Shown here: positions 23,512-32,627 of the stretch, one piece after another
How positions within the stretch are numbered: the first letter of the stretch is position 1
Layout of the letters: each line of letters starts with the position of its first letter
NCBI RefSeq assembly: GCF_056746865.1
Contig: NZ_CM163382.1
Direction: 5' to 3' (one strand)
Length of the DNA stretch: 64,000 bases
Translations under genes and position numbers: made by a program
The notes under the pieces: model-generated
Told to the model about the DNA's origin: nothing
Database searches by the model: none
What the model saw: only the letters and a program-made list of their open reading frames with translations

Positions 23512-24570
<1,059 letters not shown>

Positions 24571-24629
24571 TCATAAAGCATTGTTTGTTGGCTACGAGAA
24601 GCAAAATAGGACAAACAGGTGACAGTTAT

Positions 24630-24660
24630 ATGTAAGGTTTATGACAGTTTTATGACAAAT
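24630..24660 (-). promoter_or_regulatory. PhoB-binding Pho box(es) of the pstS promoter
   Basis: The minus strand reads ctgtcataaaactgtcataaaccttacatataactgtcac, matching the Pho-box consensus CTGTCATA(A/T)A(A/T)CTGTCA(C/T) about 80-100 bp upstream of the pstS start. Confidence 0.8.
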
Positions 24661-24799
24661 CAGAATTATTAATTAACTTTTTGATTTTATTGACTAAGAA
24701 AAAGAAAAGTAGTGTCATCTTTTTGTCATGCAAAGTGAAAACTCGCGGACAAAAATGCGTAAGATGACAACGGTGTGAGGAACACCGCGGTCAGTTCGT

Positions 24800-25870
24800 T
24801 TAGCGTACAATCTCAATTGTTATCGTTGCAGTCGCGGTAAATGTTCCTGGCGCGGGGCGAGCCCCCGTGAGGCTTGCAGGAGCAGCAGAAAAAGTGACGC
24901 TACCGGCTTTTTCACCAAAGACGTTTGATTTACCCATATCTGTCGGTAGTTCACCACCGTTAACGTTGATTTCCTTATTATTTTTATCATAAATTTTTAT
25001 CCCAACGTTCGGGTTTGATGTCACGACCATTGAGTTGTCAGTACTGGGTTCGGTAGCATAAAAAGAGGTACTGATATCATCAGTATTTAGTATTCCTAAA
25101 TTTTCACACTCAATGGTGACGGTTTTGGTAATTTTATGCGTTGTCACGGTACTTCCAGCTACCGAAGAAAAATCTGCTGCAGGAATTTCTTTAAAATCAA
25201 AATTAATGGGTCTTAAACTGTTAATTTCACAGCTTTGCGGTGCAGTGATATCGCCACGAATATAAACATCGGCCATAGGTTGTGAGTAATCAACCGGAGT
25301 GTCACGGCTTATAGTTCCGTACAATTTTGCCACGAGAGTTTCAGGGACAATTAACTTTCCAGCAAAAGTCTTCTTAATATAAAAATAAATTATTGCTTTT
25401 GCACCACTGGAAATACTTAATGGGTCCGTGCGACTACATTTATATGAACCTCCAGTAGGCCTGTTAGCATGGTATTCAAAAGGTGCATTAATGTATCCTA
25501 CACCGAGAAGGTCTATCGATATTCCAACATCCAGATTAGGATTCAAATTAAAGTAGTTTACATTAGAACGAACACCCGCATAACTTAAGGCCTCGTTTAT
25601 TCTCGCTGTATAGTAAATATAAGGAAACTCCCCCACTTTCCCTGTATCACAATGGCAGTGAGCAGGATAAGAGTCCCCATTTGTCACGGTTTTATTAAAG
25701 GTCTCTCCCACTCTGTTCTCGTCTGCCGTAATCAGATAGCCGGAAAAATCAAGTGTGCTATGAAAGGCCCCATTATCTGAGGTGCAGATACCTTTTGGGG
25801 CCGCAAATGTTGCACCACTAAAGGAGAAGATAAAAACAGTCAAGCACCACTGTATAATATACTTGTTCAT
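24800..25870 (-). CDS. Fimbrial tip adhesin-like subunit of a chaperone-usher operon (LpfD-like)
   Basis: 356-aa secreted protein (signal peptide MNKYIIQWCLTVFIFSFSGATFA) and last gene of a subunit-chaperone-usher-adhesin cluster. The two-domain size is typical of tip adhesins. Confidence 0.7.
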   Translation of the reverse strand: MNKYIIQWCLTVFIFSFSGATFAAPKGICTSDNGAFHSTLDFSGYLITADENRVGETFNKTVTNGDSYPAHCHCDTGKVGEFPYIYYTARINEALSYAGVRSNVNYFNLNPNLDVGISIDLLGVGYINAPFEYHANRPTGGSYKCSRTDPLSISSGAKAIIYFYIKKTFAGKLIVPETLVAKLYGTISRDTPVDYSQPMADVYIRGDITAPQSCEINSLRPINFDFKEIPAADFSSVAGSTVTTHKITKTVTIECENLGILNTDDISTSFYATEPSTDNSMVVTSNPNVGIKIYDKNNKEINVNGGELPTDMGKSNVFGEKAGSVTFSAAPASLTGARPAPGTFTATATITIEIVR

Positions 25871-25880
25871 AAAAATCCTT

Positions 25881-28403
25881 TTAATGACATGTCACACCTT
25901 GTTCAATTAAGCCGCTTTCACTTTCTGGTATTGAAAGTGAATAATCGAAGGTGCATGTAGTGGCGGCATTTTCCCCCCAGGAGAGCATCACTTGCCCCTT
26001 TTCAGGAAGGCCGGAGAGATAAAGCTCCCCCAGGTCACCGACAATCCCTGAATCAGCAGAGCTTGTATTTTGTACGGCAGCAATAGCGCCAAAAGGTGCT
26101 GGCTTACCTTTTGCATTCACCACTTTGAAGAGTACGCGATAGCCCACGTGGGTAACAAATTCTGCTTTAACCACCGCGCCACGGGTGGGAACCATCGTAA
26201 CGACGGTATTATCAAGTTCTATATTCGACTTCGAGAAATAGTTATCGCTGATTGCTACCCGGTTTTCATCATAAGGGTTTAGCTGTGTCTTGACCGTATA
26301 ACCACGCCAGTCCGTCGCAGCACCACGCATATTGTCTATTTCTAACCCGGCAGCCCCTGGTGCTTTAACAAGAGCTATGGTTTCACCCAACTCCTGGCTT
26401 AACGTTACGCCTTCGCTGTGAGCCAGAATTCCCCCTCTGATACCATAATTCAGCCTCTGAGAATTTTGGCTGTAGTTATAGCTGCCGTTCACCGTGCCAT
26501 AAGTGCCATCATAGGTCAGGGACATATTACCGCCAACCTCATCATCATGGCTGTTATAGGACTGCATTAAATTCCAGGAAAGGTTATTTCTTTCCAGCGC
26601 CGTACCGCTGAGTCCAAGTTGATGTGAGCTACCGGAATTATCGTTTTGCGATACAGAATAGGTGGCGTAACTATTCCCCCACCAGCCCGATAAAGGAACA
26701 GATAAAGAGAGCATGTAGATCTGCTCACTGGTGTTATCACTGGCATTGTTGTTCCCCGTCCCCTGCCGGGCAGTATTGGAATAACTCCAGGAGACGTTCC
26801 ACGAGAGACGCTTCCAGCTACTGCTGTAGCCAAATTGCATTAATCGTTCAACATCATCGGTATGCCAGTACTGCTGGCGACTTAATGTCAGATATAAGTT
26901 GCCATAATCTCTGCCCAGTGATTGCGTTAACGTTCCTTCCACACGGCTGCGGCGGTTACCGGTTTCCCAGAAATCTTCAGGATTATTACGCCGGGACGCC
27001 CATTCATTGAGGGTATAATAACCTTCGGTGGAGTAACGATAGCCAACCAGGCGCAAGCTGGTATCCGTATCGTCAAAGCGTTTCGAGTACAGGAAGCGAT
27101 AAGACTGACCGGTTTCCGTATCATCATGGCTAAATTTCGCGCGAGCATGTGTCACATCGAAAGAAATTGCGCCCAATGCGCCAAGATCTTTACCGACACC
27201 CAAAGCGGCAGAACCATACTTTTCAGCAGCCTGCATACCTCCATATAAGGTGAAACCGTAGGGAAAACCATGAAGGATCTGAGCCTGAATAACGTCAGGG
27301 GTAAAGCCATCTTCATCGCGTAATTCTCCCACACTGACATCAACATCAGTTTGACCTTCACGTTTGAGGATGGCTAACGACGCATAAGGTTGAGTAAATC
27401 GTTGTTCGCTACCGTCTTCTTCTTTGATGGTTACGTCCAGATCACCACCTGTACTGGCGGTGTTGAGATCGGTAATTTCAAAAGCACCTTGTGGAACGGC
27501 TGACTGATAAATCACGTAGCCATTCTGGCGAATAATGACAGTGGCGTTAGACTTTGCAATCCCACGCACTACGGGGGCAAATCCGTTTTGGCTGGCAGGC
27601 AACATATCGTTATCGGTATACAAGCGTGCGCCACGAATTTGCGTACTGTCGAAGATATCGCTCGCCGTCCACGTATCACCTATCATAATCTGGCTTCTTA
27701 ACGCAGCTATATCACGTTGTATCCAGGTGCTTATAGAGTTGTATTCTGCACTGCCATCGGTCGTATTTAAGGTGCTGTAATTGCGTAATCGCCACGGCCC
27801 AATATTCAGTCCATTGCGCAGATTGAGATAACTGGTATCTGTCTCTTGTGAACCATAATCCGAACGTAGAGTATGTGAACCAGAAAAATCGTAGTTGATG
27901 GTGAGCGCGTTAATCCCCTCATCCCAACGCGAGGGGCTGATGTAATCATAAGCCATCGCATCCATATAGATTTGGGGAATGGAGATATTCAGTTGCAGTT
28001 TATCGCTGTCGAACTGCCATGATGAGCCTTCAATGCGTGGCCCAGGATCAATACAGACTGTTTCATCTACATCATTGAGCGATTTCAGCGCATCAACTTT
28101 TACGCCAAAGGTGGTTAGCGTTTTTTTAATAGCGACAAAGCAGGCGTGTAAATCAGCATCGGGATTATCCTGAACAAAGGTCACATCCTGACGTTCAAAC
28201 ATTTTACCGTTGATAAAAATATCAACGCTATAAACACCTGGGGGCATCAGGTTTGCCCGATTAAACTGGCGAATATCGACTCCGGATTGATGGTCGATTT
28301 CCAGAAGCGCCGGATTGAATACACTGACCTCGGCCATCAGGCTTTGCGAGAAAATCAGACACGTCCCTGCCGTGAGGCCAACCTTTATTCTGGTCGTCAT
28401 CAT
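25881..28403 (-). CDS. Fimbrial outer-membrane usher (LpfC/FimD-like)
   Basis: 840-aa ORF with N-terminal signal sequence and the FNPALLEID motif. Size and position match a chaperone-usher-pathway usher. Confidence 0.88.
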   Translation of the reverse strand: MMTTRIKVGLTAGTCLIFSQSLMAEVSVFNPALLEIDHQSGVDIRQFNRANLMPPGVYSVDIFINGKMFERQDVTFVQDNPDADLHACFVAIKKTLTTFGVKVDALKSLNDVDETVCIDPGPRIEGSSWQFDSDKLQLNISIPQIYMDAMAYDYISPSRWDEGINALTINYDFSGSHTLRSDYGSQETDTSYLNLRNGLNIGPWRLRNYSTLNTTDGSAEYNSISTWIQRDIAALRSQIMIGDTWTASDIFDSTQIRGARLYTDNDMLPASQNGFAPVVRGIAKSNATVIIRQNGYVIYQSAVPQGAFEITDLNTASTGGDLDVTIKEEDGSEQRFTQPYASLAILKREGQTDVDVSVGELRDEDGFTPDVIQAQILHGFPYGFTLYGGMQAAEKYGSAALGVGKDLGALGAISFDVTHARAKFSHDDTETGQSYRFLYSKRFDDTDTSLRLVGYRYSTEGYYTLNEWASRRNNPEDFWETGNRRSRVEGTLTQSLGRDYGNLYLTLSRQQYWHTDDVERLMQFGYSSSWKRLSWNVSWSYSNTARQGTGNNNASDNTSEQIYMLSLSVPLSGWWGNSYATYSVSQNDNSGSSHQLGLSGTALERNNLSWNLMQSYNSHDDEVGGNMSLTYDGTYGTVNGSYNYSQNSQRLNYGIRGGILAHSEGVTLSQELGETIALVKAPGAAGLEIDNMRGAATDWRGYTVKTQLNPYDENRVAISDNYFSKSNIELDNTVVTMVPTRGAVVKAEFVTHVGYRVLFKVVNAKGKPAPFGAIAAVQNTSSADSGIVGDLGELYLSGLPEKGQVMLSWGENAATTCTFDYSLSIPESESGLIEQGVTCH

Positions 28404-28427
28404 AATACGCCTATCCTTTTCCCTTGC

Positions 28428-29159
28428 TTACAGCGTCATTTTTATCGGGTCACTGACTGCGCCGTAATCATTAATAAATCGCCAGATCATTTGGCCTCCC
28501 GCAGAATTAGCAGGTAAAGGTAACGTGAGCGTTTCAAAAGGACGGATCATGTTGAGGGGCACATCATGACCATCAACGATGACATCCATCACACTGATAT
28601 GAATCGGGTTGGGATTCTCTACAATCAGGTTTCGCCCTTCCCGGTGCCACTTCACCTTCGGTGCAGCATCTTCGGGAATCAGGCGAATGCTTGCCGGTCG
28701 CCAGAACAGCTTGATACGCGTTTTAACTGCGATTTCCAGTGAGTTCGCCGCTTTGTTGCTCGCAGAGGGCGGAATATTTTTAATATTCAGCCAGAAGACT
28801 GACTCGCGATCATCAGGCAATGACACACCTTTGGTATGAATAATGCGTAATACTTTTTCTTGCGCGGGTTCTAATCGTGATACCGGAGGAATAACGGTAA
28901 ACGGTGCTTTGCTTTTATCCTCTTTATTAAACGGATCTACCCATGCCTGGATGAGATAAGGAATTTTTTCTTCCTTGCTAAATACAGAAATAGATTTATC
29001 TGGGTTATTACTTAAGTAAACTACCCGTGTACCACCAATGACAACGCCTGCATAGGTTAATGCTGGTTGGACTAAAAAAACACTGAGTATAATCGCGGTA
29101 AATAACTTACATGAAACGGTTGTTTTAAAGAGCCTGATTAAACAACTTTTTCTGGACAT
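28428..29159 (-). CDS. Periplasmic fimbrial chaperone (PapD/FimC-like)
   Basis: 243-aa ORF with signal peptide and chaperone-like motifs (VVIGGTRVVY; NPxxxP-like region). It sits between the major subunit and the usher. Confidence 0.85.
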   Translation of the reverse strand: MSRKSCLIRLFKTTVSCKLFTAIILSVFLVQPALTYAGVVIGGTRVVYLSNNPDKSISVFSKEEKIPYLIQAWVDPFNKEDKSKAPFTVIPPVSRLEPAQEKVLRIIHTKGVSLPDDRESVFWLNIKNIPPSASNKAANSLEIAVKTRIKLFWRPASIRLIPEDAAPKVKWHREGRNLIVENPNPIHISVMDVIVDGHDVPLNMIRPFETLTLPLPANSAGGQMIWRFINDYGAVSDPIKMTL

Positions 29160-29206
29160 AACGACTCCCTGGCCAAAGCCAACTGAATAAAAAGGCCCTT
29201 GATAAA

Positions 29207-29779
29207 TTATTTCTTATATTCGACAGTAAATTGTGAATCGGCGTTCGCCGTACCCGCCGTTACAGTTGCATTGGTTGCCACATAGCGTGCAATAAACTTC
29301 ATTTCAGCCTTGCCTTCAGCGTCGATAGCGGTATAGGCAGAATCGTTATAAAGTTTAACCTGCGAGTTATCTGACTGGTTAAAAATACGAATACCGACAC
29401 CCGTTGCCGCAATCGCTTGTCCTGTACCGGTAAAATCGCCAGGGTTGCCCGCTGTAAGCGGCGTACCCACTTTCAGGTCGCCGTCGCCGCCAGGCGCTTC
29501 TGTACCATCAAAACGAACGGCTGCCTGAGTGTAGGTTGCCGGGCACTTTTCAAGTTTAATACTGAACTGCTGTGGTGACGCCAGACTACCTACACCTGAA
29601 AAAGCATTTTTACTGACTTTACCCAGTGGTACGGTTTGATCGGCTGTATCGGAGGTAACTTCACAAGTAGTGTCGACAATTTCACCGACGAAGTGAACAA
29701 CACCATCTTCTGCCAGTGCATGTCCGGCCAGCATTAAAGATGCCAGAGTGAATGCACCGCCTATAATATTACGCTTCAT
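29207..29779 (-). CDS. Major fimbrial subunit (type 1 / Lpf-like pilin)
   Basis: 190-aa ORF with signal peptide (MKRNIIGGAFTLASLMLAGHALA), a conserved Cys pair and a C-terminal beta-strand motif (FTVEYKK) typical of chaperone-usher pilins. First gene of the cluster, with an AT-rich region upstream. Confidence 0.85.
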   Translation of the reverse strand: MKRNIIGGAFTLASLMLAGHALAEDGVVHFVGEIVDTTCEVTSDTADQTVPLGKVSKNAFSGVGSLASPQQFSIKLEKCPATYTQAAVRFDGTEAPGGDGDLKVGTPLTAGNPGDFTGTGQAIAATGVGIRIFNQSDNSQVKLYNDSAYTAIDAEGKAEMKFIARYVATNATVTAGTANADSQFTVEYKK

Positions 29780-29999
29780 AAAAACTCCATTGATATAATA
29801 TATCCTTTACCATGAATCATCACTTATATTAATAAGTGTATTTTTGATCCAAAGGAATAGTACACCAAAGAGACAACTTTATCTAAAAATAATATTAATT
29901 ACTCAATCTTAAATATAAATTTATTATTTAAATATTATTAAAACAGCAAGAAATCAAGTTTATTATCAGACATTAGCAATAATTCAGAATATATTTATA

Positions 30000-30750
30000 T
30001 CAATGGGCATATGAATAATGGAATTATTGATATCACTTATAATAAATATCCTCCGGCATAGCCGGAGGTTTTTCAAATGCGCCTATAAGGCTCTCTTACC
30101 AGCCGCGCCCTAACAGGCGCACACGATCTGACATTTGCATCCAACTTCGTTACTTACGGCCCGTAAACGGGCTGCCCGGATAGGGAATCGATAACTGCTC
30201 TCCCATTTTATCCTCTTCAAGCTGGTGCTTTATGTAATCCTGTATCTTCGCCGTGTTCTTACCCACTGTATCGACGTAGTACCCTCTGCACCAGAACTCC
30301 CTGTTCCTGTATTTGAATTTCAAATCACCAAACTGCTCGTAAAGCATCAGACTGCTTTTCCCTTTCAGATATCCCATAAACCCGGATACGCTCATTTTAG
30401 GCGGGATCTCCACAAGCATATGGATATGATCTGCACAGCATTCAGCTTCCAGAATCCGTACGCTTTTCCACTCACACAGCTTTCTCAAAATACTGCCTAT
30501 TGCTCTACGCTTCTCTCTGTAGAACACCTGTCTTCGGTATTTTGGCGCAAAAACTATGTGATATTTACAGTTCCATCGGGTGTGCGCTAAGCTCTTTTCG
30601 TTCCCCATTGGGACCCCCTTTTGATTTCTTGTTTGACACTTGCAGTTGCCAGACCGCAAGGTGTTTTAACAAATCAAAAGGGGTTTTAATAACTGGCTCA
30701 AAGCTGAAAGCTTTCCGGAACCCCCAGCCTAGCTGGGGGTTTTCTGTGCA
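30000..30750 (-). mobile_element. IS200/IS605-family insertion element (single tnpA); boundaries approximate
   Basis: Contains an IS200-type HUH transposase ORF flanked by sub-terminal hairpins (cctccggcatagccggagg at about 30050; cccccagcctagctggggg at about 30722). Exact ends were not determined. Confidence 0.6.
30150..30608 (-). CDS. tnpA: IS200-type transposase TnpA (HUH, Y1 family)
   Basis: MGNEKSLAHTRWNCKYHIVFAPKYRRQVFY...ADHIHMLVEIPPK... carries the HUH motif (HIH) and the conserved IS200 TnpA N-terminus. The track ORF starts 17 codons earlier at 30659. Confidence 0.88.
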   Translation of the reverse strand: MGNEKSLAHTRWNCKYHIVFAPKYRRQVFYREKRRAIGSILRKLCEWKSVRILEAECCADHIHMLVEIPPKMSVSGFMGYLKGKSSLMLYEQFGDLKFKYRNREFWCRGYYVDTVGKNTAKIQDYIKHQLEEDKMGEQLSIPYPGSPFTGRK

Positions 30751-30759
30751 CAAAAAAGG

Positions 30760-30792
30760 GCCGCCGGTCGGCAGCCCTTTTCTATCAACGAG
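30760..30792 (-). terminator. glmS rho-independent terminator
   Basis: Minus strand reads aaaagggctgccgaccggcggccctttttt immediately after the glmS stop. Confidence 0.75.
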
Positions 30793-30797
30793 AGATA

Positions 30798-32627
30798 TTA
30801 CTCAACCGTAACCGATTTCGCCAGGTTACGCGGCTGGTCAACGTCGGTGCCTTTGATCAGCGCAACGTGGTAAGCCAGCAGTTGCAGCGGAACGGTGTAG
30901 AAGATCGGTGCAATAACCTCTTCCACATGCGGCATCTCGATGATGTGCATGTTATCGCTACTTACAAAACCCGCATCCTGATCGGCGAAGACATACAACT
31001 GACCGCCACGCGCGCGAACTTCTTCAATGTTGGATTTCAGTTTTTCCAGCAATTCGTTGTTCGGTGCAACGACGATAACCGGCATATCGGCATCAATCAG
31101 CGCCAGCGGACCGTGTTTCAGTTCGCCTGCAGCGTAGGCTTCAGCGTGAATGTAAGAGATCTCTTTCAGCTTCAATGCGCCTTCCAGCGCGATTGGGTAC
31201 TGATCGCCACGGCCCAGGAACAGCGCGTGATGTTTGTCAGAGAAATCTTCTGCCAGTGCTTCAATGCGTTTGTCCTGAGACAGCATCTGCTCAATACGGC
31301 TCGGCAGCGCCTGCAGACCATGCACGATGTCATGTTCAATGGAGGCATCCAGACCTTTCAGGCGAGACAGCTTCGCCACCAGCATCAACAGCACAGTTAA
31401 CTGAGTGGTGAATGCTTTAGTGGACGCCACGCCAATTTCCGTACCGGCATTGGTCATCAGCGCCAGATCGGATTCGCGCACCAGAGAAGAACCCGGAACG
31501 TTACAGATTGCCAGCGAACCAAGGTAACCCAGCTCTTTCGACAGACGCAGGCCCGCCAGGGTATCCGCGGTTTCGCCAGACTGTGACAAGGTGATCATCA
31601 GGCTGTTACGGCGCACGGCAGATTTGCGATAGCGGAATTCAGAGGCGATTTCGACGTCGCACGGAATACCTGCCAGCGATTCAAACCAGTAGCGGGAAAC
31701 CATACCGGAGTTATAAGAAGTACCACAGGCGAGGATCTGAATATGCTCAACCTTCGACAGCAGTTCGTCGGCGTTCGGTCCCAGCTCGCTTAAATCAACC
31801 TGACCGTGGCTGATGCGCCCGGTAAGGGTGTTTTTGATCGCGTTCGGTTGTTCGTAGATCTCTTTCTGCATGTAGTGGCGGTAAATACCTTTATCACCCG
31901 CGTCATATTGCAGATTGGATTCGATATCCTGACGTTTTACTTCCGCGCCAGTTTTATCGAAGATGTTTACCGAACGGCGAGTGATTTCCGCAATATCGCC
32001 CTCTTCAAGGAAGATAAAGCGACGAGTCACTGGCAACAGCGCCAGCTGGTCAGAAGCGATAAAGTTTTCGCCCATGCCCAGGCCAATCACCAGCGGGCTA
32101 CCAGAACGTGCCGCCAGCAGGGTATCCGGGTGACGGGAGTCCATGATCACTGTACCGTACGCACCACGCAGTTGCGGGATAGCACGCAGAACAGCCTCAC
32201 GCAGAGTACCGCCTTGTTTCAGCTCCCAGTTCACCAGATGGGCAATCACTTCGGTGTCGGTTTCAGAAACGAAGGTATAGCCACGCGCTTTTAACTCTTC
32301 ACGCAGCGGTTCATGGTTTTCGATGATGCCGTTATGCACCACCACAATGTGTTCAGAAACATGCGGATGCGCGTTAGCTTCTGAAGGTTCACCGTGGGTC
32401 GCCCAGCGAGTATGAGCAATACCGGTGCCGCCATGCAGAGGATGTTCTTCCGCTGCCTGAGCCAGCATCTGGACTTTACCGAGGCGACGCAGGCGGGTCA
32501 TATGACCTTCTGCATCAACAACGGCCAGACCGGCAGAGTCATATCCGCGGTATTCAAGACGACGTAAACCTTCAAGAAGGATTTCTGCTACATCACGTTG
32601 CGCGATCGCGCCAACAATTCCACACAT
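30798..32627 (-). CDS. glmS: Glutamine--fructose-6-phosphate aminotransferase GlmS
   Basis: 609 aa with N-terminal MCGIVGA (catalytic Cys2) and C-terminal ...LAKSVTVE. Confidence 0.96.

Follow-up and report, generated by a model that had tools for sequence, protein, structure and literature searches.

Positions 24800-29779 of the window, the whole 64-kb stretch of DNA that was analysed, contain four intact minus-strand open reading frames in the same orientation (ORF list). They encode a pilin, a chaperone, an usher and an adhesin, and are flanked by pstS and glmS as follows.

30798-32627, minus strand: glmS, flanking gene
29207-29779, minus strand: lpfA (lpfA-O113 / lpfA2-1 / stgA type), major fimbrial subunit with signal peptide, 190 aa
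28428-29159, minus strand: lpfB, PapD-like periplasmic chaperone, 243 aa
25881-28403, minus strand: lpfC, outer-membrane usher, 840 aa
24800-25870, minus strand: lpfD, two-domain tip adhesin of a minority allele class, 356 aa
23512-24552, minus strand: pstS, flanking gene

The exact gene limits and the Pfam domains agree with the initial annotation, which had described a co-oriented four-gene operon between pstS and glmS. The distance from the lpfD stop codon (24800-24802) to the pstS ATG (24552) was measured as 247 bp, matching the earlier estimate of about 250 bp, and the stop codon is 141 bp away from the first Pho box (distal edge at 24658). No ORF of at least 60 aa was found in the 247-bp gap, so that the gene set is lpfABCD only, with a single-copy lpfD and no lpfE; the ORF list contains no regulator gene within the fimbrial locus. 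The pstS-glmS interval of K-12 MG1655 is a gene-free spacer of 313 bp, which bears out the statement that K-12 lacks fimbrial genes at this junction. In an alignment to the window, K-12 homology breaks off at 24657 and 30796.

Protein domains and proposed assembly

Searches against Pfam assigned LpfA to the Fimbrial family (PF00419, E 2.6e-24), and a signal-like N-terminus was read from its translation. LpfB contains PapD_N (PF00345, E 4.5e-38) and PapD_C (PF02753, E 1.2e-10), while LpfC carries PapC_N (PF13954), Usher (PF00577, E 7.8e-187) and PapC_C (PF13953). In LpfD, a Pfam Fimbrial domain covers residues 203-353 and the N-terminal half has no Pfam assignment. Residues 35-354 of LpfD nevertheless align along the full length, both domains included, of the solved structure PDB 5AFO (E 2.9e-25), which we take to be the lpf1-type LpfD of strain LF82.

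By this domain content the operon is a chaperone-usher system resembling type 1 fimbriae, and surface fimbriae are its predicted product. The closest solved structures to the window pilin are FimA proteins, the FimA, FimC, FimD and FimH models of NCBIfam are clear secondary matches, and the assembly mechanism is presumably common to both systems. Unlike type 1 fimbriae, the window operon has neither FimF/FimG-type adaptors nor the fimB/fimE recombinases of the invertible switch, and the 5AFO protein, not FimH, is the relative of its adhesin. By analogy with the Fim/Pap paradigm, LpfA and LpfD would be exported through Sec and captured by the PapD-like chaperone LpfB, and the usher LpfC would polymerise them by donor-strand exchange. 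LpfA would then form the shaft with LpfD at the tip, where the N-terminal domain of LpfD is expected to bind a host receptor and thereby confer adhesion.

Identity of the operon among known fimbriae

The segment is almost certainly an intact lpfO113 / lpf2 (allele lpfA2-1) / stg operon at its usual glmS-pstS site. Strain EC31 has 100% DNA identity to the window over positions 24500-30800, and its genes are named lpfA-O113, lpfB-O113 and lpfC-O113 by RefSeq/PGAP; the adhesin is called only 'fimbrial protein' there. These names uphold the earlier designation as lpf-like, in a sense other than orthology with Salmonella Lpf or lpf1. LpfO113 is the product of lpfABCD of LEE-negative STEC O113:H21, and shares with the window operon the glmS-pstS site and the four genes. 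The PGAP-named locus of strain MB7671 encodes LpfA, LpfB and LpfC with 98.4%, 96.3% and 95.7% aa identity to the window proteins, respectively.

The same operon has a second name. Stg fimbriae (stgABCD) are reportedly found in Salmonella Typhi and in APEC O78, the APEC work being attributed to Lymberopoulos et al. in 2006. The glmS-pstS junction is presumably the site of the stg locus in Salmonella enterica. On a contig of this species, genes for a pilin, a chaperone, an usher and an adhesin form a homologous operon at that junction, their products having 64, 64, 68 and 44% aa identity, respectively, to the window proteins. Among NCBIfam models, LpfA scored 390 bits against PRK15289 (cutoff 203) and LpfB 534 bits against PRK15290 (cutoff 317). 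The best adhesin model for LpfD was StgD (PRK15291), with a score of 228 and a cutoff of 493; LpfC fell below every NCBIfam equivalog cutoff, and no Stg usher model was among its NCBIfam matches. A match to a different, well-characterised fimbrial type had been named beforehand as the outcome that would speak against an lpf-like operon. The closest models are indeed the Stg models PRK15289-15291, but since the same locus has been published as Stg, the objection is merely one of synonymy. The E. coli locus has been catalogued among adhesins as stgA-D (PMC11184843), and the name lpfA2-1 follows an lpfA allele nomenclature to which PMC4636846 refers.

The family name Lpf, which is applied to operons of this type, raises the question of orthology with the classical long polar fimbriae (Salmonella lpfABCDE or O157 lpf1). 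The Salmonella LpfA, LpfB, LpfC and LpfD models of NCBIfam do match significantly as secondary hits (E 5.7e-26, 4.4e-40, 1.4e-223 and 2.6e-39), and the alignment of LpfD to 5AFO points in the same direction. All four equivalog cutoffs were, however, missed by wide margins (score/cutoff 91/221 for LpfA, 137/360 for LpfB, 745/1271 for LpfC and 135/412 for LpfD), the Stg models score better, the glmS-pstS junction differs from the lpf1 site, and the locus lacks the fifth gene, lpfE. With the cutoffs missed and lpfE missing, Salmonella-type orthology was ruled out, and we regard this reading as extremely improbable.

In O157:H7, lpf2 is OI-154 and lpf1 is OI-141. Identity with O157-type lpf2 would account for the hotspot, the chaperone-usher architecture and the gene order, all of which are common to the window and an O157-type locus, L007. 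Between the two, however, aa identity is merely 39-64% (55% for LpfA, 64% for LpfC and 39-42% for LpfD), and L007 has a duplicated lpfD (two adhesin-like genes) and a broken, split chaperone, unlike the window. An identity of only 34-63% has likewise been published between the SE11-type lpf and that of O157 Sakai (PMC2608844). On sequence identity and gene content this alternative was ruled out as well and retains hardly any credibility; the window operon and O157 lpf2 share a hotspot as distinct allelic operons. The glmS-pstS junction clearly exemplifies a recombination hotspot at which one fimbrial operon occurs in several allelic forms.

The lpfO113/stg operon is ordinary, as roughly one in three E. 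coli genomes carries it: the segment occurs in 1960 of 5426 complete genomes (36%), commensals included, a genome being counted as a carrier if at least 80% of the segment was present. In SE11, E24377A, SMS-3-5 and O157 Sakai, lpf has been reported at glmS-pstS (PMC2608844). The earlier statement that some pathogenic E. coli host an lpf operon at this junction therefore stands as published, while any restriction to pathogens does not. Both the literature and routine RefSeq annotation already cover the operon and its site, the lack of it in K-12, and its allelic diversity. The main practical value of the comparison is the correct name, lpfO113/lpf2-1/stg, as opposed to Salmonella-type Lpf or O157 lpf2.

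A diverged adhesin cassette

The adhesin departs from the close agreement of the other three proteins with LpfO113. The window lpfD is of another allele class than the LpfD-O113 type, with 83% aa and 78.7% nt identity, and the lpfD-pstS spacer is about 67-72% identical. Differences from LpfD-O113 cluster in residues 24-182, and the receptor-binding domain has about 70% aa identity (counted from the alignment). The mismatch is an allelic difference within the same gene and no ground to exclude the locus from LpfO113/Stg. Across the genomes, the window allele is found at 95% nt identity or more in 452, and lpfD is about 78.6% identical in 1486. The diverged cassette comprises the 3' end of lpfC (about 25881-26200), lpfD and the lpfD-pstS spacer, and one locus, L003, is a mosaic that changes type near 26200.

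Synonymous differences amount to 0.57-0.76 in lpfD, compared with 0.08-0.16 in glmS, pstS and lpfA. The dN/dS ratio is 0.04-0.07 for lpfA, lpfB and lpfC and is low in lpfD. Positive selection on the adhesin was considered and rejected, given a dN/dS well under 1 and saturation at synonymous sites. Old alleles combined with recombination suit this pattern better than recent diversifying selection does, and we hold with great confidence, as part of the explanation as a whole, that this minority cassette class diverged anciently and has been shuffled among strains by homologous recombination. Since LpfD scores below the StgD cutoff and is without a PGAP LpfD-O113 name, its receptor specificity may differ from that of the studied alleles. 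As its receptor-binding domain is only about 70% identical to the studied one, adhesion results from O113/O104-type strains may not transfer, and the less common LpfD allele of the strain deserves flagging.

Flanking sequences and expression

The sequences on either side of the operon hold the following features.

30752-30783, minus strand: glmS intrinsic terminator, variant of lpf-bearing strains (hairpin of -27.7 kcal/mol, then T6; z = -5.4)
30040-30751, minus strand: IS200C insertion (tnpA 30150-30608), outside the fimbrial operon (Pfam Y1_Tnp, NCBIfam transpos_IS200, PGAP name)
29780-30039, minus strand: AT-rich lpfA upstream (regulatory) region, 21% GC, including a ribosome-binding site (GGAG) located 7 nt upstream of the ATG
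24765-24793, minus strand: conserved stem-loop, candidate operon terminator or 3' stabiliser, beginning 7 nt past the lpfD stop
24712-24729, plus strand: inverted Pho-box-like direct repeat (CATGACAAAAAGATGACA on the minus strand, TGTCATCTTTTTGTCA on the plus strand)
24619-24658, minus strand: pair of tandem Pho boxes in the pstS promoter (pattern match 24642-24657)

The extreme AT-richness noted earlier upstream of lpfA was confirmed, with a GC content of 19.9% at 29780-30000 and 21.1% at 29780-30040, compared with 48.5% in the window as a whole. H-NS silencing of this region, as judged from its AT-richness, is plausible. The region is 92-99% identical to O113-type loci until about 29955 and falls to 82% near the IS200C junction. 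Matches to sigma-70-like hexamers (30015-29988 and 29941-29912) are no commoner than in shuffled sequences, so no promoter was assigned; transcription of lpf would start somewhere within this region. A Pap-like control by Dam at GATC was also considered and dropped because the lone upstream GATC is not conserved, reading GAATC in locus L002.

IS200C, at about 30040-30751 between the AT-rich region and glmS, had been overlooked in the initial annotation. It is missing from loci L002 and L003, and its junction just past the glmS terminator is rare (3 of 5426 genomes). A terminator-like hairpin is found at 30068-30050, at the lpfA-proximal end of the element. The glmS terminator sequence of the window differs from its K-12 counterpart.

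An operon with intact genes could still be cryptic: H-NS acting on the 21%-GC promoter, for instance, might keep it silent for good, so that it contributes nothing in this strain, a state that the upstream IS200C may reinforce. The extreme AT-richness upstream of lpfA and the lack of a regulator gene at the locus are compatible with such silencing, as are the IS200C hairpins, one of them terminator-like, which would block read-through from glmS, and the weak effect of lpfA2 mutants in O104:H4 (PMC4636846). Phenotypes of lpf2/lpfO113 mutants are in general modest and model-dependent (PMC4636846). However, all four genes are under purifying selection and about 36% of genomes carry intact ORFs, which speaks for a use in some niche; apart from the IS, the 255 bp preceding lpfA are as in IS-free loci, and published lpf2/stg mutants have adhesion or colonisation defects (PMC4636846, PMC5357955). 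Permanent silencing is thus considered unlikely, although it deserves to be kept in mind.

At the other end of the operon, the post-lpfD stem-loop has an 11-bp stem with compensatory changes (RNAalifold). In ten loci, including the O157-type and Salmonella loci, 96.7% of cells are paired and three pairs are double-changed. A consensus scan for canonical intrinsic terminators found none in the lpfD-pstS interval, and the stem-loop is without a canonical U-run. Transcription of lpf would probably end, at least partly, at this stem-loop before the PhoB-dependent pstS promoter, and the conserved structure probably limits read-through into pstS. The fimbrial read-through into the pst promoter suggested earlier is weakened accordingly, while its proviso of no terminator stands for a canonical one. 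A second long hairpin, formed by TGTCAT repeats, reached z = -4.0 in the window but z = -1.8 in the O113-type allele; it is missing from the consensus structure and is therefore not claimed.

The distal edge of the Pho boxes at pstS is exactly where K-12 homology begins. About 70 bp upstream of these boxes lies the 18-nt CATGACAAAAAGATGACA block, which makes a good Pho box when read on the opposite strand. The pattern TGTCA-N6-TGTCA has two matches in the 64-kb window, where 0.15 are expected, namely this block and the pstS Pho box. The block is kept in six of eight Escherichia stg-type loci amid diverged flanks (spacer about 67-75% identical). It is lost in the two most divergent stg-type loci, degenerate in the O157 type and absent in Salmonella. 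A literature search found no published link between Pho boxes and lpf. There is a slim chance that CATGACAAAAAGATGACA is a real PhoB site replacing the K-12 sequence displaced by the island. In that role it might strengthen the activation of pstS, stop whatever lpf read-through is left, or promote an antisense transcript into lpfD on Pi starvation; if true, this would tie fimbrial expression to phosphate status.

Gene content and distribution of the operon

Four co-oriented genes were described between pstS and glmS in the initial annotation, and the ORF table agrees exactly with their limits and places all four on the minus strand. The roles proposed there (pilin, periplasmic chaperone, usher and tip adhesin) are correct, as judged from the Pfam domains listed below and from the alignment of LpfD residues 35-354 to both domains of PDB 5AFO (E 2.9e-25). 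This entry is labelled just 'FIMBRIAE'; we take it to be LpfD from the adherent-invasive E. coli strain LF82. The N-terminal half of the LpfD protein has no Pfam assignment.

Features of the pstS-glmS region
23512-24552, minus strand: pstS, flanking gene, same strand as the operon
24800-25870, minus strand: lpfD, tip adhesin, 356 aa; intact ORF; Pfam Fimbrial at C-terminal residues 203-353
25881-28403, minus strand: lpfC, usher, 840 aa; intact ORF; Pfam PapC_N, Usher and PapC_C
28428-29159, minus strand: lpfB, chaperone, 243 aa; intact ORF; Pfam PapD_N and PapD_C
29207-29779, minus strand: lpfA, pilin, 190 aa; intact ORF; Pfam Fimbrial
~30040-30751, minus strand: IS200C (tnpA 30150-30608), directly follows the glmS terminator T-run
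30798-32627, minus strand: glmS, flanking gene, same strand as the operon

No adaptor subunits, recombinase or regulator gene were found in the operon, and the closest solved pilin structures are FimA proteins. By homology to the Fim/Pap chaperone-usher paradigm, LpfB would serve as the periplasmic chaperone of LpfA and LpfD, and LpfC would join the subunits through donor-strand exchange, placing LpfD at the tip.

The operon is already known, common and annotated. Window 24500-30800 was compared by megablast with 5426 complete E. coli genomes; with coverage of at least 80% taken as presence, 1960 of them carry the segment. Strain EC31 is 100% identical over the whole query, and PGAP, the RefSeq annotation, names its genes lpfA-O113, lpfB-O113 and lpfC-O113, the fourth (lpfD) being labelled just 'fimbrial protein'. 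The junction had initially been described as free of fimbrial genes in K-12, and the pstS-glmS spacer of MG1655 indeed measures just 313 bp. Homology between K-12 and the window breaks off at the distal edge of the first Pho box (24657) and is regained at the glmS stop (30796); 6138 bp in the window stands in place of ~207 bp of K-12 spacer. MG1655 has been reported to lack the lpf operon, which sits between glmS and pstS in SE11, E24377A, SMS-3-5 and O157 Sakai (Oshima et al. 2008, PMC2608844).

Comparison with named fimbrial systems

The lpf-like designation given initially is supported by the EC31 gene names, with the refinement that the operon is not Salmonella-type Lpf: the NCBIfam equivalog cutoffs for LpfA, LpfB, LpfC and LpfD of that type were all missed widely, and lpfE is absent. 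The pilin and the chaperone exceeded the equivalog cutoffs for PRK15289 (390 vs 203) and PRK15290 (534 vs 317), while the top NCBIfam model for the adhesin, StgD (PRK15291), was matched below cutoff (228 vs 493). Stg in APEC is reportedly the subject of a paper by Lymberopoulos et al. from 2006. In one Salmonella enterica contig the same site is occupied by a homologous operon for pilin, chaperone, usher and adhesin (glmU-glmS-[operon]-pstSCAB-phoU); its proteins share 64/64/68/44% identity with those of the window.

The O157:H7-type lpf2 locus (L007) occupies the same site, but is much more distant (LpfA 55%, LpfC 64%, LpfD 39-42%) and has a duplicated adhesin gene. Its chaperone gene (L007 14013-14641) is broken into two short reading frames, which are annotated as fragments of LpfB (49 aa) and of a chaperone (108 aa), and for this reason the operon may not be functional in this form. 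In the literature, lpf2 comprises four to five genes, with the O113-like major subunit classed as lpfA2-1 (PMC4636846); lpfA-O113 is a third variant, found mostly outside HUS isolates (PMC5357955), and the same locus is entered as stgA-D in adhesin catalogues (PMC11184843). Amino acid identities of lpf to SE11 were given as 83-98% for SMS-3-5 and 34-63% for O157 (PMC2608844), and the 83% lower figure equals the LpfD difference measured here.

Allele classes of the adhesin

Relative to an O113-type locus, no gene of the operon has diverged nearly as much as lpfD (78.7% nucleotide and 83% amino acid identity), whereas lpfA and lpfB are 94-96% identical at the nucleotide level. The window-type lpfD allele was found at 95% or more in 452 genomes and the LpfD-O113 allele (~78.6%) in 1486. 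In a sliding-window comparison, the diverged block spans the lpfD-pstS spacer (67-72%), lpfD and the 3' end of lpfC, to ~26200, and within lpfD the divergence peaks in the N-terminal, receptor-binding half (71-75%). The comparison locus of strain 19SZHZ713Rt (L003) is a mosaic, 100% O113-type from lpfA to ~26200 and carrying the window-type cassette beyond, which indicates movement of the cassette by homologous recombination. The adhesin cassette (24660-26200: lpfC 3' end, lpfD and lpfD-pstS spacer) undergoes recombination separately from lpfA, lpfB and the greater part of lpfC.

Synonymous differences in lpfD are saturated: pS reaches 0.76 for the N-terminal and 0.57 for the C-terminal domain, whereas glmS, pstS and lpfA show values of 0.08-0.16. 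Recent positive selection on lpfD was considered as an explanation; both the saturated synonymous sites and a dN/dS far below 1 argue against it. The lpfD classes thus appear to be old, deeply diverged alleles. A protein search returned a graded LpfD series across Escherichia (96, 88, 85, 83, 81, 79, 78, 76, 70 and 53%), and all four alleles whose contigs were inspected (81, 79, 70 and 53%) adjoin pstS. IS1-linked decay of the locus was seen in some strains: in D3 (L006 7001-7986), the last 231 bp of lpfD remain beside IS1 and the rest of the operon is deleted, and in WP7-S17-ESBL-01 (hit H31) lpfD is interrupted by IS1A.

Flanking regulatory sequence

The gap between lpfD and pstS, put at about 250 bp in the initial annotation, measures 247 bp from stop to ATG. 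Read-through from the operon into the Pho-regulated pstS promoter had been proposed unless transcription is terminated, and a consensus scan of this spacer found no canonical terminator. However, RNAalifold predicts a stem-loop with compensatory changes at 24765-24793, beginning 7 nt past the lpfD stop. Across ten loci, including the O157 type and Salmonella, 96.7% of cells pair and three pairs are changed on both sides; shuffles and slid registers all fall well short of this. Given this conserved 3' hairpin, unrestricted read-through is unlikely, although its termination efficiency cannot be judged in silico for want of a clean U-run.

Further along the spacer, the block CATGACAAAAAGATGACA (24712-24729) forms an inverted Pho-box-like repeat ~70 bp from the pstS Pho boxes, on their upstream side. 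Its plus-strand reading, TGTCATCTTTTTGTCA, holds two TGTCA tracts 11 bp apart, a spacing that corresponds to PhoB repeat geometry (PMC4447250). TGTCA-N6-TGTCA has only two matches in the 64-kb window, this block being one, vs 0.15 expected. Of eight Escherichia stg-type loci, six retain the block although the sequence around it has diverged, and the two most divergent alleles have lost it; the O157 type carries a degenerate version and Salmonella has none. The block is possibly a PhoB-related element.

At the other end, the AT-richness noted initially is borne out, with 19.9% GC at 29780-30000 vs 48.5% for the whole window. The 260 bp upstream of lpfA has 21% GC, from which we infer only compatibility with H-NS silencing; sigma-70-like matches there show no excess over chance. 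IS200C is inserted ~47 bp beyond the glmS stop, upstream of the lpfA regulatory region, and the 255 bp preceding lpfA are undisturbed. The lpfA-proximal end of the element holds a terminator-like hairpin, which should insulate lpf from upstream-derived transcription. The glmS terminator of lpf-bearing strains (window 30752-30783), hairpin GGGCTGCCGACCGGCGGCCC followed by T6, differs from the K-12 hairpin (L004 3800-3838). Since K-12 homology also stops exactly at the glmS stop codon, the Tn7 insertion point (attTn7), just beyond which we take IS200C to sit, lies in non-homologous sequence; the 3' end of the glmS coding sequence, presumably the TnsD recognition region, is conserved with K-12. 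Among the 5426 complete E. coli genomes, the exact IS200C junction is shared by only 3, those of EC31, CFSAN061770 and EF5-18-41, which ties the window to a narrow, mostly poultry-associated lineage.
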